DNA of 64,000 nucleotides from an uncultured Verrucomicrobiota bacterium (GCA_903831085.1 CAIKWE010000003.1:23468-87467); one strand, 5' to 3'; positions 9,641 through 44,727 are shown, counted from the first letter of the stretch. Notes: generated from the sequence alone by a model not told the origin. A program made the numbers and translations.

Positions 9641-10708
<1,068 letters not shown>

Positions 10709-10791
10709 TTCGGCAACTCCTTCTGGATTAAATGAATGAAAGAGAGTAAATCAGAGAGCAATTGGATACGCATTAAAAAAGGGATGGAAAT

Positions 10792-11862: not shown

Positions 11863-11875
11863 CCGCAGGAGCCGT

Positions 11876-12625
11876 ATGAACAACTCTCCGTTCTTTTCAA
11901 TGATTATCCCCGCTCACAATGAAGAGGGGTGTATCGCCGAGACCTGCGAGGCGATTGCCGCACGGTTTATGCAGGAAAAAATTGATGACTACGAAATTCT
12001 GGTCGTCAACGACAACAGCCGCGACCGGACGGAAGAGATTCTGAAAAAGCTGGCCGCGGAGAATCCGCACATCCGCTATGTCAACAACGCCCCGCCGAAC
12101 GGATTCGGGTTCGCCGTGCGCAAAGGTCTTCAGGAATTCCGCGGCGAATGCGCCTGCGTGGTGATGGGCGATCTCTCAGACCATCCTGACGATATCGTCG
12201 TTTACTACCGCGAAATGAAAAAAGGCGCCGAGTGTGTTTTCGGATCGCGGTTCATCAAGGGATCAAAGATCATTGATTATCCGAAACACAAAATGATGCT
12301 GAATCGGATGGCGAACGGTTTTATTAAAATGATTTTCCGACTTGGCCACAACGACATCACCAACGCCTTCAAGTGCTACCGGCGTGAAGTGATTGAAGGC
12401 ATTCAGCCTCTGCTCTCTCCCCATTTCAACCTCACGGTGGAAATGCCGCTGAAGGCGATTGTCCGCGGTTACCGTTTTGTGACCGTTCCGATTTCTTGGA
12501 CCAACCGCAAGGCGGGCGAGTCGAAACTGAAGATTAAAGAAATGGGCAGCCGCTATCTCTTCATCGTGCTCTACTGCTGGCTGGAAAAGCGGCTGGCCCG
12601 CGGCGATTATGTGCGACGCGGCTGA
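11876..12625 (+). CDS. GT2, polyprenol-phosphate glycosyltransferase (DPM1-like)
   Basis: Start reassigned to ATG 11876 (AGGAG upstream); IPAHNEEG, VNDNSRD, GFGFAVRKG, VFGSRF, DITNAFK, RKAGESK. Confidence 0.85.
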   Translation: MNNSPFFSMIIPAHNEEGCIAETCEAIAARFMQEKIDDYEILVVNDNSRDRTEEILKKLAAENPHIRYVNNAPPNGFGFAVRKGLQEFRGECACVVMGDLSDHPDDIVVYYREMKKGAECVFGSRFIKGSKIIDYPKHKMMLNRMANGFIKMIFRLGHNDITNAFKCYRREVIEGIQPLLSPHFNLTVEMPLKAIVRGYRFVTVPISWTNRKAGESKLKIKEMGSRYLFIVLYCWLEKRLARGDYVRRG

Positions 12626-15021: not shown

Positions 15022-16999
15022 TTATTTTCCCTTCGGCTTGCGCAGGCTTCCAGCGGATATCGAAAACAAAGAGTGGATCGCCGGACGGGCTGGTGAATGG
15101 AATTTTATTTTCCCCGGGTTGGAGCGTCTGCGGTATCGTCCATGCCCTGATCCGGCCAGATGCGAAAACCGTGTTCACTCCGTTCACCGAAACGGTCTTG
15201 GGGTGCTGCGCCGTTACTGCGGAGATTTCGACTGATCCACTCAACGGAATCTCTTTCAGATTATAGAGTTTTACTGATGCCGTCTGGTTGAAGGTGCGAT
15301 AGTCCTCAAACCGGCCCTGCTGCCAGCCGGGTTTGGCATAGCCCCACCCTGCGCCGTAAAGGCGGAGGACGTCGCGTCCCTGTTGACGGGCGGCGGCAAT
15401 CAGATCTTCGGTCGTGTTGTAGAAAATCCGCACAACGACCCGATTGGTATTGGCTGCGGAAAAGTCATCCCCCGGTATCACTTTCATGCGGCGCAGAACC
15501 ATGCCGGCATCATTGGAGACAGAGGCAACGCGGGCAAAATAATGCTGAGGAAACGTCCACGAACCAAGCTGTTTTTCATAACGGCCGCGGCAGAGTTCGA
15601 GAAAGGCGGCATCCGGATATTTTTCAAAGAACTGCTCAACCGTCGCGGGCCAGTTAAACTGGCGATAAGTGTCGACCGGTTCGTCGGGAACAGTAAAGGT
15701 GTAATTAATGCCGCCGGGATTATGCACGGCCAGCTCGTTCCACGGCTCGAACCAGCGGTCGGTCAGCACGGGCGTTCCGGCGGGCAGATTCTGCAGAACC
15801 CAATTATTGATTTTATAAAACGGCGTCGGCTTGCCTTCGAGATGAACAATGGCCCAGTCCGGCAATGCAGTGAGTGCGATATACCCGCCGGCCAGCAATA
15901 CAACCAAACCTGTTCGCCATGGTTTCAGGGTCAACGCCTGAACCCCCAGATAAGAGCCAATCCCCATCAGCAGAATAAAGTGCGGCCAAATCGCCGAGAA
16001 GTAGGCGATTTTCGCGGCTCCGCCGCCGATGAACCCGACATAGAGCATGAGAACCGCGATGTGCAACGCACAAATCCACACCAGCGAGCGGAAGCGGCGA
16101 ATCGCGTCCGATGTTCGGAACAGAGCAAAGACCGCCAGCCCGACGAAAATCAGAAGCAACACGACGGCAAACATATTTTCACCGGCGAAGTAGGCCGGAA
16201 GAAGCCGTATAAATTCCGCTCGGGCATCTGTTCCAAGTTGCTTCGCACCGCTCTGGGAAAAATCCAAGGTCATTTTAACGGCCCGGAATACCCAGCGTCC
16301 CATCACCGCACCCAGCAACAATCCGCCGACAGAGAATTGCAGCAGGAACCGGTTCCGGTCTGCTCCTTTTAATCTGAGTCCGAAAATCAGAAGCAGAAGT
16401 CCTTGAAGACCGGCAACAACCCAGACAGACATGTGCATATGACAGGCCGCGACAGCGGCCAGAAACCACAGCCCCAACTGTTTTTTCGTCGGTGCTTCAT
16501 TTCGCTGCAACGTTTCTTTGATCGACCAGAAGGCCAGAAAAAGAGCCGCCGACCAGCAGACCGCGCCGGAATAGTGATAGGCCTCGCGTGAGAAATAAAT
16601 CTGGTATGGATTAAAAACTGCCAACAACAAGGTCAGCAGAGCCGCGCCAGCGCCGAACCAGCGGCGGGCAAATCGCCAGACAAAGAAAAGTGCCAAAACA
16701 CCCATGAGCGCAAACGGCAGGCACACCACAAACGGCGTCGGTGGCAATCCGGCTTTGACCAGCAAGAGGCTTAGTGTTTCGTTAAGTGGAATCTGGTTCA
16801 TCCACGGCGGATTTCTCCAGAACTCCACGATGTTCTGATTCCTCAGGGCCAGTTTATAAAATTCCATGGTATCGCTACGGAACGGCGCGGCCCCCAACAT
16901 CCAGAAGCGGAAAAAAACTCCGGTCAGGAACAGACAGAGAATCGACAGGAGACCAGCTCCGGAGGCAAAGGTCAGTTTGCGGCGTGTGATCATTTTCAT
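15011..16999 (-). CDS. GT-C (PMT_2/ArnT-like) membrane glycosyltransferase
   Basis: First-loop RSDTMEF, NPYQIYFSREAYHY motif, multiple TM helices, periplasmic C-terminal domain. Confidence 0.7.
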   Translation of the reverse strand: MKMITRRKLTFASGAGLLSILCLFLTGVFFRFWMLGAAPFRSDTMEFYKLALRNQNIVEFWRNPPWMNQIPLNETLSLLLVKAGLPPTPFVVCLPFALMGVLALFFVWRFARRWFGAGAALLTLLLAVFNPYQIYFSREAYHYSGAVCWSAALFLAFWSIKETLQRNEAPTKKQLGLWFLAAVAACHMHMSVWVVAGLQGLLLLIFGLRLKGADRNRFLLQFSVGGLLLGAVMGRWVFRAVKMTLDFSQSGAKQLGTDARAEFIRLLPAYFAGENMFAVVLLLIFVGLAVFALFRTSDAIRRFRSLVWICALHIAVLMLYVGFIGGGAAKIAYFSAIWPHFILLMGIGSYLGVQALTLKPWRTGLVVLLAGGYIALTALPDWAIVHLEGKPTPFYKINNWVLQNLPAGTPVLTDRWFEPWNELAVHNPGGINYTFTVPDEPVDTYRQFNWPATVEQFFEKYPDAAFLELCRGRYEKQLGSWTFPQHYFARVASVSNDAGMVLRRMKVIPGDDFSAANTNRVVVRIFYNTTEDLIAAARQQGRDVLRLYGAGWGYAKPGWQQGRFEDYRTFNQTASVKLYNLKEIPLSGSVEISAVTAQHPKTVSVNGVNTVFASGRIRAWTIPQTLQPGENKIPFTSPSGDPLFVFDIRWKPAQAEGKINEN

Positions 17000-17054
17000 T
17001 CCTTCGTATTCTTCTTTGCGGTCAAGACGTGCCCACCGGGCAACGCCAAACGGT

Positions 17055-17924
17055 CTATCTGATTTTCACCATTTCGTAAACCCTTATGCTGCGCGGCGCA
17101 CAGGCCGCTACCAGCATACCAACCGGCATCATGGCCAGGAATAAAAGGTGATGGTATTTTCCCGCCAGTACTGTGGCAAGACTGGCCGCCAGCAAATTCG
17201 GGAAATAGGCCGGACGCTCCGTCGCCACCCGCAAACCATGAGCGCGCCCGATTCGATCCAGCGCGGCCCGATCCGGAAAACAAATATGTCGCGGGGCATC
17301 GAGCCCGTGCCAATGCCGGCCAAAAAGGCGCGCTTCCCACGAGCGGATATCCGGCAAGGCCAGATGAATGCGCCCATCGGGACTCAGCAATGCGGACATG
17401 AGCTGGATCGAACCCTCTATATCGGTTACATGTTCCAGCACAAAATGCGCTGTGATCCGATCCACAGAGCCGGCGTGATCCTTTATAAGCTGTGTTGAAT
17501 CCGAATAAACGGGCAACGCCAGACGATCGGCCAGAATCGCCGCATGCGCGGCATCCGGCTCAAACCCCAAAAGCCGCCCCACCCGGCTTCGCCATTGCGA
17601 AAGATAGGATCCATCCCCGCAGCCGTAATCCAGCAGTGTCCAGTCACGGGCGGTCTGCGGCGGCTGGAAATAAGGACTGCGCAATACCGTCCGGCGCGCC
17701 AATTCGAGCAGACTCGAGCGTGGCTTGTGTTGCGGATATTGAGGATAAAACGGCGCAATGTCGGCTGGCACGGGCGCCTGTTGCACGAGCTTACAGTTCG
17801 GGCATTCATAATAGGTAACCCGAAAGGGCGTCCCTAGATACTCATCTGGACAATCTGTCAGCCAAGGCGCATCCAGAGGGGTCTTACACAACAGACAACT
17901 CAATTTTGACAAAGTCGATTCCAC
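17055..17924 (-). CDS. Class I SAM-dependent methyltransferase with N-terminal Cys cluster
   Basis: CLLC..CPNC; LLDYGCGDG; HFVLEHV; DAPRH. Confidence 0.8.
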   Translation of the reverse strand: MESTLSKLSCLLCKTPLDAPWLTDCPDEYLGTPFRVTYYECPNCKLVQQAPVPADIAPFYPQYPQHKPRSSLLELARRTVLRSPYFQPPQTARDWTLLDYGCGDGSYLSQWRSRVGRLLGFEPDAAHAAILADRLALPVYSDSTQLIKDHAGSVDRITAHFVLEHVTDIEGSIQLMSALLSPDGRIHLALPDIRSWEARLFGRHWHGLDAPRHICFPDRAALDRIGRAHGLRVATERPAYFPNLLAASLATVLAGKYHHLLFLAMMPVGMLVAACAPRSIRVYEMVKIR

Positions 17925-17931
17925 CGCATAC

Positions 17932-18546
17932 TCACTTTTTTAATTCAAGTCCGCCGGGGCGGTTTTCCAGTCTGAAAACTGTCATGTTGAAAATATAGTA
18001 ATCACCCGGAACGCGCCACGGGATAGGATGCCGGTACTGCCGGGCCAGCGTCAGTTGATGCTTCAGAGCCATTTGGTTAATTAATTCTTTATCAACGAAA
18101 GTTTTGTGGGTTGGATCACTCTCATAACCCCGCCGGTTTGGAACGATAACAAGCAGAACGCCGCCCGGCGCCCAGTATCGTTTTACGTTTGAAAAAAAGG
18201 CGTCAATTTCATCCGGAGACAGATGTTCCAGCACGTTGTCGCAAATCAGATTCGGCGCGGGCGGATAATCGGCTTTCGGACGGACAATATCTTCTAAGGT
18301 GACCGCGAGACCTTTCTTCAGACACCGCTCGACTAATTGTGGATTACTGTCAAATCCCTTTGCCGGAAGATTCTTCCGCTTGCAGTATTCCAGAAAAGCA
18401 CCCAATCCGCAGCCGATGTCATAAATAGGCCCGGAAGAAAACTCGGCCGCACAGCGGGGATAAATAAAATGTGTCAGATAAAAATCACGCCCGGGGCGGT
18501 ATTTTGTCTCCAGAAAATCAACGTATGCTTCTTCAGTGGTTTGCAT
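17932..18546 (-). CDS. Class I SAM-dependent methyltransferase
   Basis: IYDIGCGLG, NVLEHL, DPTHKTF. Confidence 0.8.
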   Translation of the reverse strand: MQTTEEAYVDFLETKYRPGRDFYLTHFIYPRCAAEFSSGPIYDIGCGLGAFLEYCKRKNLPAKGFDSNPQLVERCLKKGLAVTLEDIVRPKADYPPAPNLICDNVLEHLSPDEIDAFFSNVKRYWAPGGVLLVIVPNRRGYESDPTHKTFVDKELINQMALKHQLTLARQYRHPIPWRVPGDYYIFNMTVFRLENRPGGLELKK

Positions 18547-19375
18547 GGCACACCCTGCGGTAAATCAGATGGCGAAGCAAGGCCCCCGCCTTGGCTTTGC
18601 AACTTCCGACGAAGCAATCAGAAGAGGAAACTGCCGAATCGCCGGATTGCGCCGTTTCATAAATTAGCCCCGCAAATTGCCGGCTTTGTTTTTTCGCCAG
18701 CTGAAAACTCCAGCTCTGCGCAGAGATCCGGAAGTCGCACAGCGGTTCAGCCAGATAAAAGCAGTCCCCGCGCTTGAGCAGTTGAAACCAGAAATCCAAA
18801 TCGATGACGTACGGATAACGGGCGCTGAATCCATTCAGTGTATTCCAGTCCGAAGCGCGGAACAGCGCTGAGCCGGGCTCGCCGATCAGGTTAGTTCCCG
18901 ATCTGACGATCTGCCGAATGGCCTTGCTACCCTCAACCATTTGATCCCGTTTCTTCCAACAACGAGTGAGAATGGTCTTCCCCGATGGATTTACGATCCG
19001 TCGCGCAGCAGTAACCAGCGAAACAGACTCATTGCCGGACTGTTCAAAAACAGCCACCTGCCGGGCGAGGCAGTCGGGATGAAGTCTGTCGTCATGACAA
19101 AGCAGTTTGCGGTAAATCCCCCGCCCCTCATTCACGCAACGGTTCCAGTTACCCTCCGCGCCCAGCCGTTTCGGATTGAGCAGGTAACGAATGCGCGGAT
19201 CGGAATACGAAGAGACGATTTCCGCAGACCCGTCCGTAGAGCCGTCGTCGGTAATCACCAACTCCCAGTTGGTCAGAGTCTGAGACAGCACCGACTCGAT
19301 GGCCTCGCGAATATAAAGACCGCTGTTGTAGAGAGGAATGCAGACTGAAACAAGTGGCGTGTCGACCTGGCTCAT
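18533..19375 (-). CDS. GT2 family glycosyltransferase (soluble)
   Basis: VSVCIPLYN, ITDDGSTD, LCHDDRL, IGEPGS. Confidence 0.85.
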   Translation of the reverse strand: MSQVDTPLVSVCIPLYNSGLYIREAIESVLSQTLTNWELVITDDGSTDGSAEIVSSYSDPRIRYLLNPKRLGAEGNWNRCVNEGRGIYRKLLCHDDRLHPDCLARQVAVFEQSGNESVSLVTAARRIVNPSGKTILTRCWKKRDQMVEGSKAIRQIVRSGTNLIGEPGSALFRASDWNTLNGFSARYPYVIDLDFWFQLLKRGDCFYLAEPLCDFRISAQSWSFQLAKKQSRQFAGLIYETAQSGDSAVSSSDCFVGSCKAKAGALLRHLIYRRVCHANH

Positions 19376-20439
19376 ACATCTCCCGGCAAACCGGTTTCGA
19401 ACCGCTTAATCTGGCGAAGGGTTTCGACTTTCATATCCGCGCCCGCCAGCTGCGCCTTCCACCAGGCGACGGTCTGCTCCAACGCAATATCCAGCGTCCA
19501 TTGCGGATGCCAGCCGAGCGCAGAGCGGACCCGCGAAGAGTCGAGAAAGAGAAAGGCTGTTTCGTGCGGATGCTGACCCTTCGCGCATTCCCACGCAGCG
19601 TCACCGTCCCACAGGACAATCAGCTTTTCCAGCAACTGCTGCACTGAGACATGACTTTCTTCATCGGGCCCGAAATTCCAGGCGGATGCATACGCACCCG
19701 GATTTTCCGCCAGTTTTTGCGCCAGCATCAGGTATCCGTAAAGCGGATCCAGCGCATGCTGCCAGGGGCGTATCGCCTGCGGCGAACGGATGAGAGGCTT
19801 CTTTCCAGCGGCCAGCGCATTGAGCACGTCGGGCAACAGCCTGTCACGAGCGCGGTCGCCGCCGCCGATGACGTTACCGGCGCGTGCGGTTGCCACAGGC
19901 GGACAGTCAGCGAATGAATGACGGTAAGATGCCACCGCCAGTTCGGTGCAGGCTTTGCTGGCGGCATAAGGATCATGTCCGCCCAGCCGGTCGTTTTCCG
20001 TATAGCCACGGCGCAGTTCGCGATTTTCATACACCTTGTCCGTGGTGACCGCCACCACAGAGGAAACGCCGCCCGCATGGCGCAAGGTTTCGAGCAGATT
20101 CACGGTGCCCATGACATTAACTGCAAAGGTTTCAACCGGCTGTTCATAGGAGACGCGCACCAACGGCTGTGCGGCCAGATGGAAAACCACTTCGGGACGA
20201 GTGGCTTCCACGACGCGACCAAGCGCGGAAAGATCGCGCACATCGCCGATCACCGACTGCATGCCAGATGTGACATCTGCATCGGCAAAGAGACTTCCGG
20301 CGGCATCCGGCTCCAGTGCGTAACCAGTCACCTGCGCGCCGAGCTGCTGAAGCCACAAACACAGCCAGCTGCCTTTGAAGCCGGTATGTCCGGTCACCAG
20401 CACTCGCCGGTTTTTCCAAAATGAACGGTTCATTTCCAT
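19372..20439 (-). CDS. rfbG: CDP-glucose 4,6-dehydratase
   Basis: FWKNRRVLVTGHTGFKGSWL, HLAAQPLVR, TTDKVYEN, DPYAASK, RPWQH, WNFGP. Confidence 0.93.
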   Translation of the reverse strand: MEMNRSFWKNRRVLVTGHTGFKGSWLCLWLQQLGAQVTGYALEPDAAGSLFADADVTSGMQSVIGDVRDLSALGRVVEATRPEVVFHLAAQPLVRVSYEQPVETFAVNVMGTVNLLETLRHAGGVSSVVAVTTDKVYENRELRRGYTENDRLGGHDPYAASKACTELAVASYRHSFADCPPVATARAGNVIGGGDRARDRLLPDVLNALAAGKKPLIRSPQAIRPWQHALDPLYGYLMLAQKLAENPGAYASAWNFGPDEESHVSVQQLLEKLIVLWDGDAAWECAKGQHPHETAFLFLDSSRVRSALGWHPQWTLDIALEQTVAWWKAQLAGADMKVETLRQIKRFETGLPGDV

Positions 20440-20457
20440 AGCATCCTCGACACCCGT

Positions 20458-21381
20458 TTACTGATTGCGCAGAAAATACAACGGGCGTTTTTTACTCTCT
20501 TCAAAAATACGGCTGACATATTGACCGACCAGACCGAGGCAAAGCAGCTGGATTCCCGTCAGAAAAAGAATCAGCGCCACGACCGTGGCCCAGCCTGAAG
20601 CAAACTCCTCCGGATGCAGAATCTTCCCGACGATAACCCTCAAACCCTGGATGAAACCGCTGAAGGCAATTATCACACCGAGGCCCATAACCCAGCGCAA
20701 CGGCGCGGCGGAAAATGAAGTGATGGCATCGAAGGCCAGTTTGAGCGATTTCCAGACCGGATATTTGGTGACGCCCGCCTTGCGGGCGGCACGGTCGTAA
20801 TACACGGCGCCCTGTTTGAAACCGACCCAGCAGGTCAGGCCGCGCATGAAACGGTGCAGCTCGCGCACTTCTTTGAGCGCATTGATCACCTTGCGATCCA
20901 CCAGCCGGAAGTCGCCGGCATCCATCGGTACGTTCACTTTAGCGAGCCGGTGGAAAATCCGGTAGAAGGAGGCCGCCAGAAATTTCTTAAGCCAGGTTTC
21001 GCCCTCGCGGCTTTTACGGACGGCATAGACCACTTCAAATCCTTCACGCCACTTGGCGAGCAGATCCGCAACGACCTCCGGCGGATCCTGCAGGTCGGCA
21101 TCAATAATGACTACGGCATCGGCATCGGCGTGATCCATACCGGCAGTGATGGCGATCTGGTGGCCGAAGTTGCGGGAAAGCTGCAAGACTCCAACCCTTG
21201 GATCGCTCTGCCGTGTTTTTTCCAACCATTGGAAACTCCCGTCGGTCGAGCCGTCATCCACAAAAACAAACCGGAGTTCTTCCGGCTCTTTTTCAAAAAC
21301 CGCGCTTACCCGGCGGTAGAGCTCGGGCAGATTTCCCTCTTCGTTAAGAAAAGGAACCACGATGGCCACTGTTTTTTTCAT
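20458..21381 (-). CDS. GtrB-like polyisoprenyl-phosphate glycosyltransferase (GT2, two C-terminal TM helices)
   Basis: LSRNFGHQIAITAG, IDADLQDPP, DAGDFRL, FEESKKRPLY. Confidence 0.9.
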   Translation of the reverse strand: MKKTVAIVVPFLNEEGNLPELYRRVSAVFEKEPEELRFVFVDDGSTDGSFQWLEKTRQSDPRVGVLQLSRNFGHQIAITAGMDHADADAVVIIDADLQDPPEVVADLLAKWREGFEVVYAVRKSREGETWLKKFLAASFYRIFHRLAKVNVPMDAGDFRLVDRKVINALKEVRELHRFMRGLTCWVGFKQGAVYYDRAARKAGVTKYPVWKSLKLAFDAITSFSAAPLRWVMGLGVIIAFSGFIQGLRVIVGKILHPEEFASGWATVVALILFLTGIQLLCLGLVGQYVSRIFEESKKRPLYFLRNQ

Positions 21382-21423
21382 AAGTACCGCTCCGTTCCGT
21401 ACGCTAAATCAAAACCATCCCGA

Positions 21424-23511
21424 TCAGTTACCAGCCGCTTCGATACTAACCTGGTTCACAAACAATTCTCCAGCGACATTCGCCGAACGTGGAGTCACTT
21501 GAAAGTTAAAAATATTGGTGCCGGGAGCCAGAGGAACGGAAGGGATGGTCAATACACCCGGGCCTCCCGAAATGTCTGCGCCGGAAATCAAGGTATTACC
21601 TGCCGAATCGCGAACCGTCACGCGGCATCCGGGGCTCAGCACTGTCAGCTTAATAGCCGCAGTTGCCGGATTGGTTCCCGTGTTTCCAATCAGCATCTGA
21701 CCGACCCCGGACAGACCCATCCAGTTCATATTCAGGCGCGGCGAGCCGTCGCTTTGTTTTGCATAGCGCCACTGACGCCCCCATTCGTGGCTGAACGGAC
21801 GTTTATTGCGAGCGGCAAGGGCGAATGCATCGCCGGGCTCGTTCCAGGAAACCAACACTCTCGGCATATAAATCGAGGCGGCCTGCCGTTCGCCGATGGG
21901 CAGAGTTCTAAGGCGCACCAGCCATTCCCAGGCGTTATCGACGAGCCAGATATGGCGCATGAATAATTCGTCGCGGGGTATCGGCGGCTGACCCTGTTCG
22001 GGCACAAGAATGTCGTATGGGGTGATTTCCAGCAGGTAGGCGCTGGGTTGAAGGCTGAACAGGGCGCGGGTCAGGGCGGGCACCGGATTCATAAGGAAAT
22101 CCTGCGTGGTACTATTGGCGCTGACAAACGTCGCCTGACGTCCCGGTGTCGGATAGGCGCTTGGAACACCGCGCATTTCGTAGATGCTCATGTTGGCATA
22201 TAGGCCGCCTTCCGGCACATTCCGGCTGATCCATTGCGCCATATCCTTGTAGTTGTACCCTCTGCTTTTCAGGCCAATCACCAGCAAATCATTCAGCAGC
22301 AGCCACGATACGAGAATCGCCACCAGTGCAATGCCCGCCGTTCGCCGCACCATGCCCCCATTTTTCGTTCCGGTGAATAATCCGCCAAAAAGAGCATCCG
22401 CTCCGATCCCGGCAAATGTGATCAGGATCGGAAATAAACTGCAGAAGTAGCGAACCTCGAACCGGCTATTGGTTTGAATCTGATAGGTCGCCTGAAAAGC
22501 AACATAGATGATCGCCTGGAGCAACAGGATCATGCCGGCAGTGTGTGCGATATCTTTCCGGGAGACGCGGAAAATCCGGTAGATTCCCCAGCCGACCACC
22601 AGCAGGAAGAATGCTGCGGCGACCCAGGACTCGCCCCACCCCATGCGAGACACCAACGTCAGCGCGGCGGCGGGAGTGAAATAGTAGGTTCCTGCGCCGA
22701 CATCGGTGCTCTTATATCCACTGGTCAGCAGTCGAATTAAAAATGGTGAGAACAGCAGATATGGGATCACCATCATCAACCCCAGCAAAAGAAGCCGTCC
22801 GCGTTTCCACAGCGCCGGGAGTCCGTGTCGCCAGATCAATGCCAAACCAAGAATCGGCGTCCATACCGAAAGAAATACAGTCGCCGTCAAATGGGTTTGC
22901 AGGAAGAGCGACGCAAAAAGAACGTAGCCGGCGAGCCATCGCCACGGCACCGCGTCTTTTCGCCAATCCTCCATCAGGATACGCAACGAACACCACAGCA
23001 TGCCCGTGGAGAAAAACATCAGGTAGCCATAGGCATAGGCTTCGCGTGCATAATAAATGTGAAAGGGCGAAAGCGCCGCGAGCGACATCGCAACCAGTCC
23101 GGCCCGGCGGCCGGCCAAGGCCCGTGTAAGCCAGTACATCAAAGGCATCAGCAGACAACTGATTAACGCGCTGGGCAGGCGGAGATAAAATTCGGGAGGG
23201 AAGCCTTGGCTGACGCCTATCAATTTCCCGACGTAATGAATTGGAACCATGAACAGCGGCAGAACCCGGTACCAGTGAAACCGCTGCAGTTCGGTCTGAT
23301 AAATGGAAAAAACGTCGGACTGAAAAATAGCATCGCGGATGGTGACGATTTCATCAATCTGCAACGAAGCGCGTCCCAGCCAGAAAAGCCGGAGAAGCAG
23401 CCCGATCCAAAGAATCGTCATGAAAGCGTAGTCGCGTTTACGAGTCGTCGGAGCTTTTTCCGTGTGGACGTTCTTCTTCACGAAAGCTCTCCTGAGTGCG
23501 TCCTGTACCAT
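21424..23511 (-). CDS. GT-C (PMT_2-like) membrane glycosyltransferase
   Basis: ASLQIDE first loop, SPFHIYYAREAYAY, multiple TM helices; resembles 15011-16999. Confidence 0.7.
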   Translation of the reverse strand: MVQDALRRAFVKKNVHTEKAPTTRKRDYAFMTILWIGLLLRLFWLGRASLQIDEIVTIRDAIFQSDVFSIYQTELQRFHWYRVLPLFMVPIHYVGKLIGVSQGFPPEFYLRLPSALISCLLMPLMYWLTRALAGRRAGLVAMSLAALSPFHIYYAREAYAYGYLMFFSTGMLWCSLRILMEDWRKDAVPWRWLAGYVLFASLFLQTHLTATVFLSVWTPILGLALIWRHGLPALWKRGRLLLLGLMMVIPYLLFSPFLIRLLTSGYKSTDVGAGTYYFTPAAALTLVSRMGWGESWVAAAFFLLVVGWGIYRIFRVSRKDIAHTAGMILLLQAIIYVAFQATYQIQTNSRFEVRYFCSLFPILITFAGIGADALFGGLFTGTKNGGMVRRTAGIALVAILVSWLLLNDLLVIGLKSRGYNYKDMAQWISRNVPEGGLYANMSIYEMRGVPSAYPTPGRQATFVSANSTTQDFLMNPVPALTRALFSLQPSAYLLEITPYDILVPEQGQPPIPRDELFMRHIWLVDNAWEWLVRLRTLPIGERQAASIYMPRVLVSWNEPGDAFALAARNKRPFSHEWGRQWRYAKQSDGSPRLNMNWMGLSGVGQMLIGNTGTNPATAAIKLTVLSPGCRVTVRDSAGNTLISGADISGGPGVLTIPSVPLAPGTNIFNFQVTPRSANVAGELFVNQVSIEAAGN

Positions 23512-24455
23512 TCATATGTTCGAGCCAGCCCTTCGCGGAGCCCCACGGTGTTTTCCCAGTCCAGCAACTGCTTTTCGCGGGTCGGCACATAAATTTTATC
23601 CACCCGCTCATCGCATTTTTCGTGCAGGATACGGGGAACTAAGTCGTTCCAGCCTGAGATTTCAACAAGCTGACGGACGATATCCAGAACCGAACTGTTG
23701 ATCCCGGTGGAAAGCCGGAATATCTGCCCGCGAACATCCGTACGGTGCAATCGTTCAGCGATCGCACAATAGGCATTTACCGCATCTTCGATATACACAT
23801 AAGCCCGAGCGAGCTGCCCGTCGCCGCGGATGACCGGCACTTTTTCCTGCAACAAAGATCGTATGGTGCCGGGGATTAATCGCTGCCAATTGAGATCGCC
23901 GCCGCCGTAGAGATTGTCGGAGCGAACACAGGATGTCAGCAGACCGAATGTGTCATTGTAAGCTCTGGCCATCAACTCAGCGGAAGCCTTTGAAACCATG
24001 TACGGATGATGTGGCCGGACAGACTGTTCAGAGAAACACTCCTCCGCTTCCCGACTCGATGCGATTATGATACGGGCCTTTGGCGATGCCGCGCGACAGG
24101 CTTCCAGCACAGTATAAACACCGCGAATGTTTGCCTCCCACAATGCGTACGGCGGTTGGGTTCCTGTGTTGGAATTGATCGCGGCCAGATGAAAAACGGT
24201 ATTGATTCCGGAATCACCGCACAGGCCAGTCAGCAAAGATAAATCTGTTATGTCGCCGCGAACGATGGTTGCTCCGGCCGCCATCAGGTTTTTTACATCG
24301 CATTCCTGATTGCCGGACCATACCAAGGCATACACGGAGGCCCCGCGCGCCAGCAGGCTGCGCGTCATGGCCCCGCCTAAAAATCCGTCCGCACCGGTAA
24401 TCAGCACCCGCTGATCCGGCCAATGAAGTTTGGACGATTTTTCAGCGGCGTTCAT
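23478..24455 (-). CDS. NAD-dependent sugar epimerase/4-ketoreductase
   Basis: VLITGADGFLG, FHLAA, YMVSK (YxxxK), NLYGGGD. Confidence 0.8.
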   Translation of the reverse strand: MNAAEKSSKLHWPDQRVLITGADGFLGGAMTRSLLARGASVYALVWSGNQECDVKNLMAAGATIVRGDITDLSLLTGLCGDSGINTVFHLAAINSNTGTQPPYALWEANIRGVYTVLEACRAASPKARIIIASSREAEECFSEQSVRPHHPYMVSKASAELMARAYNDTFGLLTSCVRSDNLYGGGDLNWQRLIPGTIRSLLQEKVPVIRGDGQLARAYVYIEDAVNAYCAIAERLHRTDVRGQIFRLSTGINSSVLDIVRQLVEISGWNDLVPRILHEKCDERVDKIYVPTREKQLLDWENTVGLREGLARTYEWYRTHSGELS

Positions 24456-24458
24456 AAA

Positions 24459-25769
24459 TCAGAGCGAATAGGACTGATCTCCGAAATCGTTGTCCAGATA
24501 ACGTTCGTAGTTGTTGATGTCCACCAGGTGCAGACGCGGCAGCGAGAAAATCAAGGTGCCGCCGCGCCGGAGGAAATCCATTTCATCCCGGATGACTTCA
24601 CTGCGGAAGTGCCAGATAAAAACAAACAGGTACTCCGGTTTGAGAGCGCGCAATTTCTCGTGGGAGATAATCGGAATGCGTGCTCCCGGCGTCACGAGCC
24701 CGTCTTTTTCCGGGTTACGGTCGCCAATGGCAACGATGTCGCCGGGCCCGAGATCGCAATAGTTTATAACCACGTTCCCCTTGGTCGAAGCGCCATAGCC
24801 ATACACCTTTTTCCCTGCGGCGCGCATAATTTTGAAAAAGTTTTTGACATCATCGCGGTGGGCGAGCATCCGGTTGCGCAGACGCTGATAGGGCGGCGGG
24901 AAGTCCAGCTCAGCCTCAGAAGCAAGAAGGCTGTCGAGGTGTCTCTGCTCCGGAACATAGGGGCCGTCCGCGCGTCCGACATAAAGGTAGAAACTTCCGC
25001 CGTTCATATCGTTAAATGACACGTTCAGTATTTTAAGACCCTCCTTCCGCATCATCCAATCCATCTGGCGAAGGCCGTAATAGGTGACATGCTCGTGGCA
25101 GATCTGATCATAGGAAAGCTGCTTCAAAAAGAGCGGCATGTATGCCAGCTCCAGAGCCCACACCCCGTCAACGGCGAGCAAAGCACGGATTTGACGGATA
25201 AACGACAGCGGATCGTCGAGGTCGTAGAACATCGCGATCGACGTGATGATCTTGCAGTTCTTGCTGCCGATCATGGAACGCGTTCCCTTCTCCGAAAAGA
25301 AATCATATACGACATTGATGTCAGGCTGGTAGTTGTGGCGGAATTTTTCTGCGGAAGGATCCATTCCGATGCGGGTAAATCCGGCTTCGCTGCCGTAAGC
25401 GTTCAGCAGAGTTCCATCATTGCTGCCGATATCGAGGAGGACATCGCCGCGGCGGGGCTTGGCATACGCAACGAGATCGCGCACCTTGCCGGTCAGGTGG
25501 GCCGTCATGGTCGGACTGATGGACGAAAAATATCCGTAGGTGCTTCCGTACATTTCTCTAAGGTCCGCCGTGTCGCGGAGCTGAACCAACCCGCATGCGC
25601 CCGGTTTTGCGCTGATGTCACAGCGGATTAAATCCAGCGGGGAAGACGACGGATCAGGCTCCGATGGCTTCGGGAACACGCCGCTAAGGGGCTGCGTTCC
25701 CATGTCGACGACCGGGACGAGGTGGGGGTTGCCGCAAATGCGACATTGGTTCCATATTTTAGATGCCAT
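24459..25769 (-). CDS. NDP-hexose C-methyltransferase (TcaB9/KijD1 type)
   Basis: N-terminal CRICG and C..CGLVQL zinc ligands, LDIGSNDG, ICHEH..YY, YGASTKGN. Confidence 0.85.
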   Translation of the reverse strand: MASKIWNQCRICGNPHLVPVVDMGTQPLSGVFPKPSEPDPSSSPLDLIRCDISAKPGACGLVQLRDTADLREMYGSTYGYFSSISPTMTAHLTGKVRDLVAYAKPRRGDVLLDIGSNDGTLLNAYGSEAGFTRIGMDPSAEKFRHNYQPDINVVYDFFSEKGTRSMIGSKNCKIITSIAMFYDLDDPLSFIRQIRALLAVDGVWALELAYMPLFLKQLSYDQICHEHVTYYGLRQMDWMMRKEGLKILNVSFNDMNGGSFYLYVGRADGPYVPEQRHLDSLLASEAELDFPPPYQRLRNRMLAHRDDVKNFFKIMRAAGKKVYGYGASTKGNVVINYCDLGPGDIVAIGDRNPEKDGLVTPGARIPIISHEKLRALKPEYLFVFIWHFRSEVIRDEMDFLRRGGTLIFSLPRLHLVDINNYERYLDNDFGDQSYSL

Positions 25770-25773
25770 TTTG

Positions 25774-26784
25774 TCAGTTCCTTATTTCGTTGGGACACGG
25801 AGGAAGCCGACCGGCATCGACTCCGTGACTTTGGTCAATCACATACAAAGGCCTGTTTTGCACTTCGCGATAAACCCGGCCAAGATACTCGGCGACAACG
25901 CCGATGGAAATCAATTGGAAACCGCCCAGAAACAGAATGGCGGTCATCATACTGGCATAGCCCAGCACGTCTTTTCCAAACACCATGGTCCGAATGACGA
26001 GAGCGAGGGCTGCCAATATTGCCAGCATCGATATCCCCAAGCCGATGTAGGACCAGATGCGCAAGGGGCGGTTGGTGGTGGACAGGATAGCGTCTACGGC
26101 GTAATTCCAAAGGAAACCCCAGTTCGATTTGGATTTGCCTTTGATCCGTTCGGGGCGGTCGAACATGATGGCGGTGCTCTTGAATCCCGCCCACGCCGTC
26201 AGACTGCGGAGGAACCGTGATTTTTCCCGGATATGCCGGATCACTTCTACGATTTTGGCGTCAATCAGCCGGAAGTCCCCGGTGCGCTGCGGAATGCTGT
26301 TCTCGCTGACAACGTTGAACACCTTATAGAACAACGTGTTCAGGAATGTTTTGAATCCGCTGTCGATGCCGGAGCGGCAGCGGGTAGCGTACACCATATC
26401 GTAGCCTTCACGCCATTTGGCGACAAAATCCGCCATCATCGCCGGCGGATCCTGAAGATCCGGATCCATAAGAATCACGGCATCGCCTTTGGCATAATCA
26501 AGGCCTGCGGTAAGAGCCATCTCCTTGCCGAAATAACGGGAGAAACGAATGACTTTAATTTCCGGATGCCGCTGGCGCCACAACAGCAATTGTCCATACG
26601 TGTTGTCGGTGCTGGCATTATCCACACAGATCACCTCGAACGGCATGTTCAGTTTTTCCAGGTGAAGCATTAATTCCTCGAAAAACAGGTCGAGAATTTC
26701 GGTCTCGTTTAAAAACGGAACGATCACCGAAAGCAATTTATCCCCGGATGGATTGTTCATAGTTTGGTTAACTGTTTCAGTCAT
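25774..26784 (-). CDS. GtrB-like polyisoprenyl-phosphate glycosyltransferase
   Basis: FSRYFGKEMALTAG, MDPDLQDPP, TGDFRL, YREVQNRPLY, two C-terminal TM helices. Confidence 0.9.
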   Translation of the reverse strand: MTETVNQTMNNPSGDKLLSVIVPFLNETEILDLFFEELMLHLEKLNMPFEVICVDNASTDNTYGQLLLWRQRHPEIKVIRFSRYFGKEMALTAGLDYAKGDAVILMDPDLQDPPAMMADFVAKWREGYDMVYATRCRSGIDSGFKTFLNTLFYKVFNVVSENSIPQRTGDFRLIDAKIVEVIRHIREKSRFLRSLTAWAGFKSTAIMFDRPERIKGKSKSNWGFLWNYAVDAILSTTNRPLRIWSYIGLGISMLAILAALALVIRTMVFGKDVLGYASMMTAILFLGGFQLISIGVVAEYLGRVYREVQNRPLYVIDQSHGVDAGRLPPCPNEIRN

Positions 26785-26815
26785 TATCCGATTACTCCTG
26801 CCACTGCGCCCCTGC

Positions 26816-27589
26816 TCACGCCCACATTTTCCATGGGGCTTTGCCGCCGTCCCACAAATCCTGAAGAGTCGTTTTGTCGCGGAGCGTGTCGACCGGCTGC
26901 CAGAAGCCCTCGTGAAGATAAGTGGAAAGCTGCCCCTCAGATGTAAGCCGATTCAACGGTTCGCGTTCCCATACGGTTTGGTCGCCATCGATATAGTCCA
27001 GCACTTTGGGCGAGCAAACAAAAAATCCGCCATTAACCCAAGCGCGGTCACCGGCGGGCTTTTCCTCAAAATCCAATGCCTTGTTGTTGGCAATTCGCAA
27101 GGCACCAAAACGGCCAGGCGGACGAGTGGCCGTCAGAGTGGCCAGAGTCTTCTGCTTACGGTGAAACTCCAGAAGTTTCTTGATGTCCACATCGCCGACG
27201 CCGTCTCCGTAGGTAAGACAAAAATCTTCGCCTTCCACTAAGTACGGCTTAATTCTTTTGATTCGCCCGCCCGTCATGGTGTTTTCTCCGGTATCGACCA
27301 GCGTCACTGTCCACGGATCCGAGTAATTGTGGTGCACCTTGATCTCGTTATTGGCCAGATTGATGGTTACATCGGACATGTGCAGAAAATAGTTGGCGAA
27401 GAATTCCTTGATCATGTAGCCCTTGTGCCCGAGGCAGATGACAAAATCCGTAAGACCGAACGCGGAATAGATCTTCATCACGTGCCACAGAAGCGGCCGT
27501 CCGCCGACTTCGATCAGCGGCTTGGGCTTGATAGCCGTTTCCTCGCTGATCCGCGTGCCCAATCCACCTGCTAAAATCACCACTTTCAT
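26816..27589 (-). CDS. rfbF: Glucose-1-phosphate cytidylyltransferase
   Basis: ILAGGLGTRISEET..PKP, TMTGGRIKR, LTYGDG, GFWQPVDTLRDK. Confidence 0.95.
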   Translation of the reverse strand: MKVVILAGGLGTRISEETAIKPKPLIEVGGRPLLWHVMKIYSAFGLTDFVICLGHKGYMIKEFFANYFLHMSDVTINLANNEIKVHHNYSDPWTVTLVDTGENTMTGGRIKRIKPYLVEGEDFCLTYGDGVGDVDIKKLLEFHRKQKTLATLTATRPPGRFGALRIANNKALDFEEKPAGDRAWVNGGFFVCSPKVLDYIDGDQTVWEREPLNRLTSEGQLSTYLHEGFWQPVDTLRDKTTLQDLWDGGKAPWKMWA

Positions 27590-27778
27590 AACGTTTCGAC
27601 CTCAGAGCTCATATCTTACACCATCAGCAACCCACCGTGCGCCGGACGTATGTTCTACCCGATCTGTCCCTGTACTGCAAGAAACCCGTTTAAAAGAGAT
27701 GGCTCCTGTGGTTACTTTACTTGACTCCGGAAATCTTACGGCACCCCCCGCTGACTGTCCTGCGGAGGGAAGGTTGGG

Positions 27779-28354
27779 TTATATTCCGGGAAAGAGTTCG
27801 TTTTCCACCTGTTCACAGATGCAGTGATAGACTACCACTCCCACTTCTTGAATATGTGGCGTAAAGTTGGAGGGTATTTCGATCAGCACATCGGCCAGTT
27901 TCGCCAATGCACCTCCGCCGCAACCGGTCATGGCGATGGTTTTAACGCCCATAGTCTTCGCGGCTTTAAAGGCTTCCACTACGTTTTTGGAGTTGCCAGA
28001 CGTTGAGAAGCCGAAAGCAATATCGCCGAACGCTGCGTTAGCCTGCAATTGTCTGGAAAAAATCTGTTCATAGCCATAATCGTTGGCCAGGCAGGTTACC
28101 GTGGAGGCGTTGCAGACCAGCGCCTGAGCCTTGAGGGGCTTCCGCTCTTTAAGATAACGCCCATTCAGTTCGCCAGCCATGTGCTGCGCATCGGCCGCCG
28201 AGCCGCCGTTGCCAAAAAGGAACAGCCCGTGTTCTTCACGGTAGGCCGCAACAATCATACTGGCAGCACAGCTGATGGAACTCGCACTTTGCTCCAATGT
28301 CTTGCGCAAAAGCTGTTCGACTTCCTGAAAGCGTTTGGTAAGCAGTTCTTTCAT
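27779..28354 (-). CDS. gmhA: D-sedoheptulose-7-phosphate isomerase
   Basis: GNGGSAADAQH, NDYGYEQIFSRQ, STSGNS, IQE. Confidence 0.93.
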   Translation of the reverse strand: MKELLTKRFQEVEQLLRKTLEQSASSISCAASMIVAAYREEHGLFLFGNGGSAADAQHMAGELNGRYLKERKPLKAQALVCNASTVTCLANDYGYEQIFSRQLQANAAFGDIAFGFSTSGNSKNVVEAFKAAKTMGVKTIAMTGCGGGALAKLADVLIEIPSNFTPHIQEVGVVVYHCICEQVENELFPGI

Positions 28355-28386
28355 TACATACTCCTGTTCAACAGTTCATTACCTGC

Positions 28387-28902
28387 TCAAACCGGCAGAT
28401 CCAGCACCTCAATCAGTTCGGAAATCCGGCGCGTACATCGCGTTGACTCTGCCCCGCCTAACATTATCCGGTTCGGGATACCGGCAGTTTCGGCGGCGGC
28501 CATATCGGTATCCTTGTCACCAAGCATCCATGAATGCAACGGATCAATATCATATTCTCTAATGGCCTGCAGAAACATCCCCGGTGCGGGTTTCCGGCAG
28601 GAACATCTCTCCTCCGGAGCGTGCGGACAGCTGTATACAGCCGCAATTTCAACATCCTGCTCTGCAAACTTCTGTATCATCCATTCATTGAGCTTTCTGA
28701 AGTCCTCTTTGGTGTAATATCCCCGTCCAATCCCTGACTGGTTAGTCACCACGACCAGTTTATACCCCTTCTCCGCTAACTGTCTTAAGACCGGAAAAAC
28801 CGACTTGATGAACTCAAAATCCTCAATGCGGAATACATATCCGTGATCCACATTGATCACCCCGTCACGATCCAGAAAAAAAGCTTTTTGCCCGCCACTC
28901 AT
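28387..28902 (-). CDS. gmhB: D,D-heptose 1,7-bisphosphate phosphatase (HAD)
   Basis: Start reassigned to ATG 28902; FLDRDGVIN, VTNQSGIGRG, CPH..CSCRKP, GDKDTD. Confidence 0.92.
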   Translation of the reverse strand: MSGGQKAFFLDRDGVINVDHGYVFRIEDFEFIKSVFPVLRQLAEKGYKLVVVTNQSGIGRGYYTKEDFRKLNEWMIQKFAEQDVEIAAVYSCPHAPEERCSCRKPAPGMFLQAIREYDIDPLHSWMLGDKDTDMAAAETAGIPNRIMLGGAESTRCTRRISELIEVLDLPV

Positions 28903-29099
28903 ATATCTCTTCGTTCCCACATATCCTCGGCCCGACAGGTGAGCAGGCAAGGTATCAGACTGAAAAACCGATTCAAGTGCAATACACCGATTCACAGCCG
29001 GAAGCCACGGTTCAAAAAGGTAACACGAATTTTTAATTTCCGTAATCCGGGGTTCTCCGGTATGTTTAACGGGATTTTTTACGAAAGGATCTCCTGGAT

Positions 29100-30032
29100 A
29101 TGAATATTCTTATTACCGGCGGAGCCGGTTACATTGGTTCCATACTGACCCCACGCCTGCTGTCCCTGGGACACAAGGTTACCGTGATCGACAACTTCAT
29201 GTACGGGCAGACGTCTCTGCTCGATTGCTGCCATAACCCCGATCTGACCATCGTCCGTGGCGACATCCGTCATCCGGATTTTGTTAAAAAGCATCTGGCT
29301 AAAGCGGATGTCATCATTCCGCTGGCCTGTCTGGTTGGTGCTCCGGTCTGCAATCAGAAACCCATTGAGGCGCGCACCATCAATCTGGATGCCATTAAAA
29401 TGCTGGCCGACCTGAGCGGTAAGGGACAGATTCTTCTCTCCCCCACCACCAACAGCGGCTACGGCATCGGCGAAGAAGGCCTGTTCTGCACTGAGGAAAC
29501 GCCGCTCCGCCCCGTTTCGCTCTATGGCACGCTCAAAGTGGAACTGGAGGAATATCTGCTGGCCACCGGCCGCGCCGTTTCGCTCCGCCTTGCGACGGTC
29601 TGCGGCATCAGCCCGCGTATGCGCCTCGATCTGCTGGTCAACGACTTCACCTACCGCGCCGTGACCGACCGTTTCGTCATCCTGTTCGAAGCGCACTTCA
29701 AGAGGAACTACATCCATGTGCAGGATGTCGCCTCCGCCTTCATTCATGCGATAAAGAACTTCGATGCGATGAAAAATCAGGCCTACAACGTCGGCCTGAG
29801 CGAAGCCAATCTCTCGAAGATGGAGCTCTGTCTTGAAATTAAGAAGTTGGTTCCTGACTTCTGTATCATGGAATCGGAAATCGGCAAAGACCCCGACCAG
29901 CGCAACTACATCGTCAGCAACGATAAGATTGAAAAAACCGGCTTCAAGCCGCAGGTTTCAATCCAGCAGGCGATCAGCGAGTTGATCAAAGGCTATCAGG
30001 TGATCCGCCGCCACGACTTCACCAATCTCTAA
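29100..30032 (+). CDS. SDR dehydrogenase resembling Campylobacter Cj1427 (GDP-D-glycero-D-manno-heptose 4-dehydrogenase)
   Basis: GGAGYIGS, IIPLACLVGAP, TNSGYGIG, PRMRLDLLVNDF, RNYIHV, DPDQRNY motifs, which I recall from Cj1427; needs alignment. Confidence 0.75.
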   Translation: MNILITGGAGYIGSILTPRLLSLGHKVTVIDNFMYGQTSLLDCCHNPDLTIVRGDIRHPDFVKKHLAKADVIIPLACLVGAPVCNQKPIEARTINLDAIKMLADLSGKGQILLSPTTNSGYGIGEEGLFCTEETPLRPVSLYGTLKVELEEYLLATGRAVSLRLATVCGISPRMRLDLLVNDFTYRAVTDRFVILFEAHFKRNYIHVQDVASAFIHAIKNFDAMKNQAYNVGLSEANLSKMELCLEIKKLVPDFCIMESEIGKDPDQRNYIVSNDKIEKTGFKPQVSIQQAISELIKGYQVIRRHDFTNL

Positions 30033-43959: not shown

Positions 43960-44727
43960 TTATCCGGAATAGCGCAACAGCCGTTCGGCCAGCCGTCCGA
44001 GCATCGGAATCATGAAGCGCAACGGCGAATAGAACATCCGTAGCCGGACCATCGCCACAAACATATTCACCGACGATCGGCCGATCTCAACTTTAGAACC
44101 GCTCACATCGTGCCAGACCGTCGGAACCTCGCGGATGGTGGCCCCGAGGCGTTTAGCCTGAAACAGCATATCCACGTCGAACGCCCAGTTCGTCACACCC
44201 AGATTGCGCAGTACCGGCTGAATCACTTCGCGCCGAAACAGCTTGGCTCCGCACTGCGTGTCCGTCAACTTAAGCCCAAACAGCACCCTCACCAGCAGAT
44301 TGAAACAGCGCGAAGCCGCGCGCCGCGAAAGCGGCTGTTTCGGACTGACATCCGCCCCTTTCATCCAGCGGGAAGCAATGATACAGCCGTCCAGACTGAT
44401 TTTTTGAACGAGGTCATCAAACGCTTCGGGTGAAGTCGCGCCGTCGGCATCAACAAAACCGATCAGGTCGCCCTCCGCCGACTGCGCACCCAGCAGCACC
44501 GCACCACCCTTACCGACGCGTTTCGGCTCCTCAATCACCTTCACCTGCGGATAACGCAGGCCAATGCCGCGCGCCACCTCCGCCGTGCGGTCGCTGCAAA
44601 AATTGGGCACCACAATCAGTTCGGCCTCGTCCCCGTACTTTTCGTCAAAGTATTTAGCGTAGGCTTCCAACATCGGCGGAAGCCGATGTTCTTCGTTGTG
44701 GGCCGGAATGACGATGGAGAGCTTCAT
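43960..44727 (-). CDS. Dolichyl-phosphate glucosyltransferase-like GT2 (ALG5 type)
   Basis: IPAHNEEHRL, GKGGAV, FVDADGAT, DTQCGAK, WAFDVD. Confidence 0.85.
   Translation of the reverse strand: MKLSIVIPAHNEEHRLPPMLEAYAKYFDEKYGDEAELIVVPNFCSDRTAEVARGIGLRYPQVKVIEEPKRVGKGGAVLLGAQSAEGDLIGFVDADGATSPEAFDDLVQKISLDGCIIASRWMKGADVSPKQPLSRRAASRCFNLLVRVLFGLKLTDTQCGAKLFRREVIQPVLRNLGVTNWAFDVDMLFQAKRLGATIREVPTVWHDVSGSKVEIGRSSVNMFVAMVRLRMFYSPLRFMIPMLGRLAERLLRYSG

Follow-up and report, generated by a model that had tools for sequence, protein, structure and literature searches.

The DNA analyzed here, called the window throughout, is a stretch of 64,000 nucleotides (nt) from contig 3 of a 2.14-Mb genome (94.6% complete) of an uncultured Verrucomicrobiota bacterium of the order Kiritimatiellales (GCA_903831085.1, CAIKWE010000003.1:23468-87467). 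Its interval 19372-27589 carries, on the minus strand, the predicted pathway for a CDP-activated branched sugar, interleaved with two polyprenyl-phosphate glycosyltransferases (GtrB1 and GtrB2) and a membrane glycosyltransferase of the GT-C type (GT-C1). The gene list in the initial annotation of this DNA is correct, because seven open reading frames (ORFs) tile the interval exactly, with an intergene spacing of -34 to +42 nt, and their domain and family matches agree with it. In the order of transcription, the genes are as follows.

26816..27589, minus strand: RfbF, glucose-1-phosphate cytidylyltransferase, 257 amino acids (aa); TIGR02623; first gene of the module
25774..26784, minus strand: GtrB1, polyprenyl-phosphate glycosyltransferase of the Asn43/Tyr71/Pro95 clade, 336 aa; GT2 domain and two C-terminal transmembrane (TM) helices
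24459..25769, minus strand: sugar C-methyltransferase (C-MT) of the TylC3/TcaB9/MtmC family, 436 aa; PF08421, PF13489, and PF08484
23478..24455, minus strand: extended short-chain dehydrogenase/reductase (SDR), putative NAD(P)H-dependent 4-ketoreductase, 325 aa; PF01370, 132.8 bits
21424..23511, minus strand: GT-C1, membrane glycosyltransferase with a GT-C fold according to an AlphaFold2 (AF2) model and Foldseek, 695 aa; about nine TM helices; PMT_2, 24.8 bits
20458..21381, minus strand: GtrB2, polyprenyl-phosphate glycosyltransferase of the Asp43 type, 307 aa; GT2 domain and two C-terminal TM helices
19372..20439, minus strand: RfbG, CDP-glucose 4,6-dehydratase, 355 aa; TIGR02622

A metagenome-assembled genome (MAG) of the Kiritimatiellales (L001) keeps the whole block at 90-98% protein identity, and the core of the block recurs in other phyla; hence, the arrangement is not a chance juxtaposition. 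The array is probably one operon. A promoter and terminator scan of 12000-29200 gave counts not above those of shuffled sequence, and the operon structure is therefore read from gaps and overlaps only. The block sits within a larger glycan locus, at about 9.6-46 kb, together with heptose-pathway genes and further glycosyltransferases.

The assignment of the CDP-sugar genes begins with two equivalog matches. RfbF matches TIGR02623 over its full length (residues 1-256) with 440.4 bits (cut-off 300.25), and RfbG matches TIGR02622 with 453 bits (cut-off 278.45), so that strong homology shows the pair to be the enzymes expected to turn glucose-1-phosphate into CDP-4-keto-6-deoxyglucose. The best solved relatives of C-MT are all 3-C-methyltransferases, namely MtmC (4rv9, E-value of 1.8e-50), TcaB9, and 5t6b. 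C-MT combines a zinc domain with four cysteines, an S-adenosylmethionine (SAM) fold, and a C-terminal domain. Across 26 aligned homologues the residues C9, C12, C50, and C59 of the zinc domain, D113-I-G of the SAM fold, and H225-E226-H227, with the catalytic Glu-His, are invariant, the last of these motifs aligning with the HEH of MtmC. The SDR has the Rossmann motif TGADGFLGG at residue 20 and Y152-x3-K156; a homologue (36-56% identity) directly follows C-MT in most loci. The C-MT family is large and almost always found near a cytidylyltransferase gene: of 66 related loci from named genomes, 51 have an RfbF-like gene no more than 10 kb from C-MT. RfbF, RfbG, C-MT, and SDR form a recurrent and widespread four-gene cassette, which occurs in this plain order in several Verrucomicrobiota.

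Given these families and the recurrence of the cassette, a CDP-activated C-methylated 6-deoxyhexose is a well-founded prediction for the product of the module. C-MT probably adds the methyl branch to CDP-4-keto-6-deoxyglucose, most likely at C-3. We infer that the adjacent SDR reduces C-4 and so finishes the sugar as a CDP-3-C-methyl-6-deoxyhexose, and the C-3 position and the stereochemistry of this product are likewise putative. The pathway named in the initial annotation therefore stands as far as the four-enzyme module is concerned, while its cereose/cillose identity and the 3-C position are taken from family homology only. The same genome holds a second C-MT paralogue (G000:C55:27965-29185; 29% identical, 156 bits), and paralogues at 26-28% identity are also present in several related genomes.

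GtrB1 aligns over its full length with Synechocystis GtrB (sll0501, PDB 5EKP; 325 bits, 48-52% identity) and has TM segments at residues 246-264 and 279-297. It contains D107-P-D109-L-Q-D, and its R135, D170, R210, and R213, which correspond to R122, D157, R197, and R200 of GtrB, are invariant. What distinguishes the enzyme is a set of replacements in the nucleotide pocket, which we number according to Synechocystis GtrB, where A95 is the middle residue of the DxD motif. D43N, N71Y, and A95P are absolute, being present in 13 of 13 members of the GtrB1 clade and in 0 of 81 other GtrBs. In GtrB1 the three residues are N56 (codon 26617-26619), Y84 (26533-26535), and P108 (26461-26463), and the enzyme accordingly has Asn56 where GtrB-type proteins are expected to have Asp43. 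V165I, E198P, W207S, and F215Y are further changes specific to the clade.

The signature is sharply bounded. In a collection of 5.8 billion proteins it occurs in all 56 best matches to GtrB1 (at least 56% identity, at least 390 bits) and in none of the next 64 (at most 55% identity, at most 365 bits, many of them cyanobacterial). Asp43 is found in sll0501 and in 142 of the top 150 diverse family representatives; these come from a representative library with 39,031 family proteins at an E-value of 0.001 or below, in which two distant clade members and no close ones were among the matches listed. ArnC, which uses a UDP-sugar, and GtrB2 both keep Asp, Asn, and Ala at positions 43, 71, and 95.

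The GtrBs that bear the signature form one clade (Shimodaira-Hasegawa-like approximate likelihood ratio test [SH-aLRT] support of 99) on a long stem, nested among ordinary GtrBs, with sll0501 in a neighboring group. Orthologues of GtrB1 (58-77% identity) stand beside C-MT in two Verrucomicrobiota MAGs, Luteolibacter, "Candidatus Kuenenia stuttgartiensis" (Planctomycetota), an Elusimicrobia MAG, and a Methylomirabilota MAG, and more distant clade members (about 40% identity) do so in SAR11 genomes. This association holds in samples that were not chosen by it. Among metagenome loci picked by GtrB similarity alone (80 loci with 86 GtrB genes, at 34-48% identity to GtrB1, among the matches listed), which serve as a control and not to count the clade, Asn43 and Tyr71 occur in 2 of the 86 genes, and C-MT adjoins those two only (Fisher's exact test, P = 2.7e-4); over the unbiased samples, a clade member adjoins C-MT in six of six cases. 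Four further clade members on long contigs all have C-MT and a PMT_2-type GT-C no more than 8 kb away, and a TIGR02623 RfbF accompanies three of the four, whereas two Asp43 control GtrBs have neither C-MT nor a PMT_2 GT-C within that distance and are surrounded by housekeeping genes. Among 41 related genomes (genus and order), orthologues of GtrB1 and C-MT are present in the same three (the genome studied here, G016, and G021) and absent elsewhere; of the 25 genomes of the genus, 3 have both genes and the others have neither. A scattered distribution of this kind is usual for variable surface antigens and perhaps also for phage-receptor variation.

The locus of the Methylomirabilota MAG, which has a true GtrB1 orthologue, also encodes a divergent GtrB-like protein (L011:5617-6606; 29% identity) with the motif IDNGSDD and no DxD ("LMDM-ASDPP"); it is perhaps a paralogue that has lost its activity or acts in another way.

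The position of the first replacement suggests its meaning. Asp43 of GtrB hydrogen-bonds N3 of the uracil in UDP, its counterpart in Pyrococcus DPMS, Asp39, binds N1/N2 of guanine, and the base-binding loop follows the conserved arginine (R70 in GtrB) and thus runs from N71 on (Gandini et al., PMC5526996). Four clade members have Asn at both 42 and 43, and hence no carboxylate at the base site. N3 of uracil is a hydrogen-bond donor and N3 of cytosine an acceptor, and a change from carboxylate to amide would be what a switch from U to C needs. W207 is described as the gate for product exit in GtrB (PMC12698845), and its change to Ser in the clade suggests that the enzyme has adapted to another sugar head group.

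Asn43 also occurs outside the clade. One such protein (P0383), with Asn43 and Cys95, adjoins RfbH (NF011936, 679 bits), the dehydrase of the CDP-3,6-dideoxyhexose pathway, and another (P0386), with Asn43 and Ala95, is followed by RfbF (TIGR02623, 315 bits). The neighbor that these Asn43 proteins have in common is therefore a CDP pathway and not one particular sugar, which fits a change at the residue that binds the base. The free tree has three changes of the Asn43 state; in an approximately unbiased (AU) test on a reduced set, a single Asn43 clade was not rejected (P = 0.56), and hence we do not claim convergence. Taken together, the pocket and the gene context point to a CDP-sugar as the donor of GtrB1.

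The likely partner of GtrB1 is GT-C1. Its AF2 model has a mean pLDDT of 86.8 and a pTM of 0.84, and a Foldseek search with the membrane part returned GT-C enzymes only (STT3, AglB, PglB, AftD, ArnT, ALG9, DPY19, PMT, and Emb; E-values of 2e-9 to 1e-4). We are confident that the model describes a GT-C fold with a periplasmic alpha/beta domain. D53-E54 follows TM1 directly, lies in the first extracytoplasmic loop, and does not vary among 19 homologues. The family is small, with about 21 full-length sequences, one of which is named a family 39 glycosyltransferase by NCBI; GT-C1 has no sequence match in the PDB, and it scores 24.8 bits against PMT_2, below the cut-off of 26.1 that its orthologue in L002 exceeds (28.5 bits). 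Orthologues of GT-C1 follow C-MT and SDR in two Verrucomicrobiota loci, L002 and L009. The C-terminal beta-sandwich (21436-21726, residues ~596-692) matches carbohydrate-binding modules (CBMs) in the fold search, namely CBM4-2, CBM6, and a porphyran-binding CBM (E-values of ~6e-4 to 1e-3), and this CBM-like C-terminus suggests that the acceptor of GT-C1 is a polysaccharide.

Elsewhere the clade has other partners: a PMT_2 family in Elusimicrobia, Methylomirabilota, and three metagenome contigs, one large membrane-protein family in Kuenenia and Luteolibacter, and another in SAR11, the latter two without a family name. A profile of the GT-C1 family found no similarity in the membrane proteins beside the GtrB1 orthologues of Kuenenia/Luteolibacter and SAR11, which are thus separate families; the GT-C nature of partner families B and D is putative. 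Because the clade pairs with different families of large membrane proteins, the loader appears to be conserved and the transferase interchangeable.

Metagenome contigs L149, L150, and L154, which carry GtrB1-clade members, share a larger conserved block with a GT2-methyltransferase fusion, a PMT_2 protein, two to three SAM methyltransferases, a Wzx-like Polysacc_synt flippase, a GT2, the clade GtrB, and a second PMT_2 protein. This block points to a heavily methylated glycan that would be built partly in the periplasm.

We favor, with some reserve, a route for this operon that leads from the CDP-sugar over undecaprenyl phosphate (Und-P) to GT-C1. GtrB1 would move the branched sugar from CDP to Und-P at the cytoplasmic face of the membrane, a step suggested by comparative genomics and the pocket residues, a flippase would export the lipid-linked sugar, and GT-C1 would attach it to a surface glycan in the periplasm. 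A hand-over of the sugar to polyprenyl phosphate had already been proposed in the initial annotation; it is supported for GtrB1 and GT-C1 by the co-occurrence with C-MT, the dedicated clade, and the replacement of Asp43 by Asn, and it is dropped for GtrB2, which is of the ordinary Asp43 type and has no specific tie to the CDP pathway. The accompanying remark that such a route is not known to be described agrees with full-text literature searches, in which no paper connected CDP-sugars or C-methyltransferases with GtrB/GT-C systems or described CDP donors for such enzymes.

Several observations weigh against this route. The closest characterized relative of GtrB1, at about 50% identity, is demonstrated to make Und-P-glucose from UDP-glucose, since Synechocystis GtrB uses UDP-glucose in vitro and accumulates Und-P-glucose in E. 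coli (PMC4728340). No GtrB is nearby in 54 of the 66 C-MT loci, which makes cytoplasmic transfer by a Leloir enzyme the usual fate of such sugars, and in our locus a soluble GT2 (18533..19375) directly follows rfbG; for both reasons a cytoplasmic route is possible for the same sugar and is probably the norm elsewhere. The window contains no GtrA-like flippase, and the PF04138 matches in the genome are on contigs 6 and 9 only. With no GtrA nearby, the only visible flippase candidates are an EamA/DMT-family transporter of 299 aa at the edge of the glycan locus (46420-47319) and the unassigned membrane proteins at 42054-43382 and 44724-46352. Moreover, Asn43 would suit adenine as well as cytosine, so that the CDP assignment rests on gene context, and Asn43 may have a single origin, in which case the correlation between residue and context may amount to one evolutionary event.

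The kinship with the UDP-glucose enzyme and the many C-MT loci without GtrB both favor a different division of labor, in which GtrB1 is an ordinary Und-P transferase for UDP-glucose or another UDP-hexose and the CDP-branched sugar is built into the repeat unit in the cytoplasm by a Leloir transferase, for which the soluble GT2 at 18533..19375 is a candidate. The side branch that GtrB1 and GT-C1 add to this glycan would in that case be a plain hexose, and the shared glycan would account for the linkage of the genes. The catalytic and acceptor residues (DxDLQD and the equivalents of R122, D157, R197, and R200) are all kept in GtrB1, which also favors this explanation, and sugar binding by GtrB is loose, with UDP-Gal and 6''-caged UDP-Glc being tolerated. 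We nevertheless consider it rather unlikely, because it leaves unexplained why the otherwise invariant pocket residues D43, N71, and A95 have all changed in precisely the clade whose genes are tied to CDP-sugar genes and why Asn43 lineages outside the clade stand beside RfbH or RfbF; in addition, an ordinary Asp43 enzyme for a UDP-sugar, GtrB2, is already present in the operon.

It is more doubtful still that GtrB1 takes an early CDP donor (CDP-glucose or CDP-4-keto-6-deoxyglucose), with the sugar being tailored later or the branched sugar going elsewhere. That Asn43 lineages occur with different CDP pathways, once with RfbF alone, makes the nucleotide and not the sugar their common factor, and tailoring at the lipid level has precedents such as ArnD acting on Und-P-Ara4FN, DprE1/E2, and ORF13 of the pentofuranose systems (PMC11127046). 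However, the constant neighbor inside the GtrB1 clade is C-MT itself and not RfbF alone, C-MT and SDR are soluble and family annotation places their solved relatives among the nucleotide-sugar enzymes, and the clade changes near the sugar and product exit (W207S, F215Y, and E198P) suggest an adaptation to an altered sugar. Finally, C-MT might act at another carbon or on another intermediate, so that the product would not be of the cereose/cillose type and the rest of the scheme would hold. NovU-type enzymes methylate C-5, and C-MT is only about 30% identical to the solved 3-C-methyltransferases. We give this very little weight, because every solved relative of C-MT that we found is a 3-C-methyltransferase and the only characterized CDP-linked pathway with this gene set, as it is cited in PMC7725333 and PMC9095892, yields 3-C-methyl sugars.

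What would the route from the CDP-sugar over Und-P mean beyond this locus? Periplasmic glycosylation by an Und-P-sugar and a GT-C enzyme is known for glucose, galactose, GlcNAc, aminoarabinose, galacturonate, and pentofuranoses. To our knowledge, the loaders in these cases start from a UDP-sugar, a GDP-sugar, or phosphoribosyl pyrophosphate (PRPP). GtrB1 may represent a family of polyprenyl-phosphate glycosyltransferases whose donors are CDP-sugars and not UDP- or GDP-sugars. In this joint reading the family would be marked by Asn in place of the base-binding Asp43, with Tyr71 and Pro95 in addition in the C-methyl-sugar clade; it would span at least six phyla and work with interchangeable GT-C partners, some of them putative, from at least four unrelated families. 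We judge the chances of this reading as a whole to be evenly balanced. If it is true, CDP-derived rare sugars (C-methyl-6-deoxyhexoses and 3,6-dideoxyhexoses) are added to surface glycans outside the cytoplasm, a CDP-dependent loader constitutes a new donor class by which rare branched and dideoxy sugars reach the surface without a dedicated Leloir transferase, and the change from Asp43 to Asn provides a simple sequence marker for nucleotide specificity in a very large enzyme family.

The same reading extends, speculatively, to a known glycan. A "Candidatus Kuenenia stuttgartiensis" MAG (L037:7151-14336) has a GtrB1 orthologue (about 70% identity), C-MT, and SDR, with RfbG and RfbF near and a 574-aa multi-TM protein upstream. 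The S-layer O-glycan of Kuenenia has a side unit of 174 Da, described as a "putative dimethylated deoxyhexose" (PMC5088730), and a 6-deoxyhexose with one C-methyl and one O-methyl group has the same residue mass. The CDP-loader route could account for this unit; no O-methyltransferase is visible in the 21-kb Kuenenia locus, and the link between cassette and sugar is therefore speculative.

Past RfbG, the minus-strand array of our window runs on to 12607 with five more genes.

18533..19375, minus strand: soluble GT2 glycosyltransferase, 280 aa; PF00535, 95 bits; no TM helix; 4-nt overlap with the rfbG stop
17932..18546, minus strand: class I SAM methyltransferase, possible sugar O-methyltransferase, 204 aa; PF13489/PF08242; 91% identity in L001
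17055..17924, minus strand: class I SAM methyltransferase, possible sugar O-methyltransferase, 289 aa; PF13489, 67.8 bits; 93% identity in L001
15011..16999, minus strand: GT-C2, distant paralogue of GT-C1, 662 aa; PMT_2, 24.1 bits; about nine TM helices
12607..15021, minus strand: membrane protein of 804 aa with about 12 predicted TM helices, last gene of the array; 11-nt overlap with GT-C2

The two methyltransferases may O-methylate the glycan. GT-C2 is 23% identical to GT-C1 over 631 residues (E-value of 3e-17) and is a candidate partner of GtrB2; the 804-aa membrane protein has no Pfam match. GtrB2 is 38% identical to GtrB1, retains VDDGS, SRNFG, and DADLQD, has TM segments at residues 226-244 and 267-285, and lies far from the GtrB1 clade in the tree. 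It probably loads an ordinary hexose from a UDP-sugar for use by GT-C2 or the 804-aa protein. We considered that both GtrBs load the branched sugar and rejected this because GtrB2 is an ordinary Asp43 enzyme that is distant in the tree. A tandem pair of GtrB-like genes on another contig of the genome (G000:C60:40886-42762; 26% and 30% identical to GtrB1) brings the number of polyprenyl-phosphate glycosyltransferases encoded by the genome to at least four.

Beyond the end of the array, 9641-12625 contains a divergent pair of SDRs resembling CDP-tyvelose-2-epimerase and a DPM1-like soluble GT2, which has the motif VVNDNSRD, with Asp kept at 43, and GDLSD in the DxD region. The two SDRs may represent further CDP-sugar chemistry that feeds the same locus.

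The system described here resembles several known ones, each in a different part. The BC3358-61 operon of Bacillus cereus makes CDP-cereose and CDP-cillose, according to the accounts of Li et al. 2017 (J Biol Chem 292:7636) in PMC6976573, PMC7725333, and PMC9095892. The likeness is one of predicted activities, the same four (cytidylyltransferase, 4,6-dehydratase, C-methyltransferase, and reductase) being expected in our locus. Here, however, polyprenyl-phosphate glycosyltransferases and a GT-C are encoded between the pathway genes, whereas the B. cereus operon is not known to have such glycosyltransferase partners and its sugars decorate spores.

A close counterpart of the membrane part is the Gtr system for O-antigen glucosylation of Shigella and Salmonella phages, with a GtrA flippase, the Und-P-glucose synthase GtrB, and a GT-C called GtrC or Gtr*; the solved enzyme of this kind is Synechocystis GtrB (PDB 5EKP and 9NYC-9NYK). 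A GT2 with two TM helices, DxDLQD, the acceptor arginines, and a GT-C partner are common to both, as would be the role in adding side chains outside the cytoplasm. GtrB-type loaders have been described as users of UDP-sugars (Kelly et al. 2024, PMC11127046); GtrB1 differs from them by Asn43, N71Y, A95P, and W207S, is encoded among the genes of a CDP-sugar pathway instead of depending on UDP-glucose, and has no adjacent GtrA. In the pentofuranose systems of Citrobacter youngae O1/O2 (Kelly et al. 2024, PMC11127046), an unusual sugar, which Leloir enzymes do not provide in the form required, is likewise placed on Und-P and flipped, and once the polymer is complete a GT-C adds it, but their loader is a PRPP-dependent phosphoribosyltransferase and not a GT2/GtrB, and the donor is not a nucleotide sugar.

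A precedent for the logic of our operon is ArnC/ArnT, which modifies lipid A with aminoarabinose. The gene for ArnC, a member of the GtrB family, belongs to the very operon whose enzymes supply its unusual nucleotide sugar, and the GT-C ArnT follows. This precedent shows that polyprenyl-phosphate glycosyltransferases embedded in a pathway use the product of that pathway. ArnC itself uses a UDP-sugar and keeps Asp43, Asn71, and Ala95, and GtrB1 scores only 143 bits on the ArnC model (cut-off 529).

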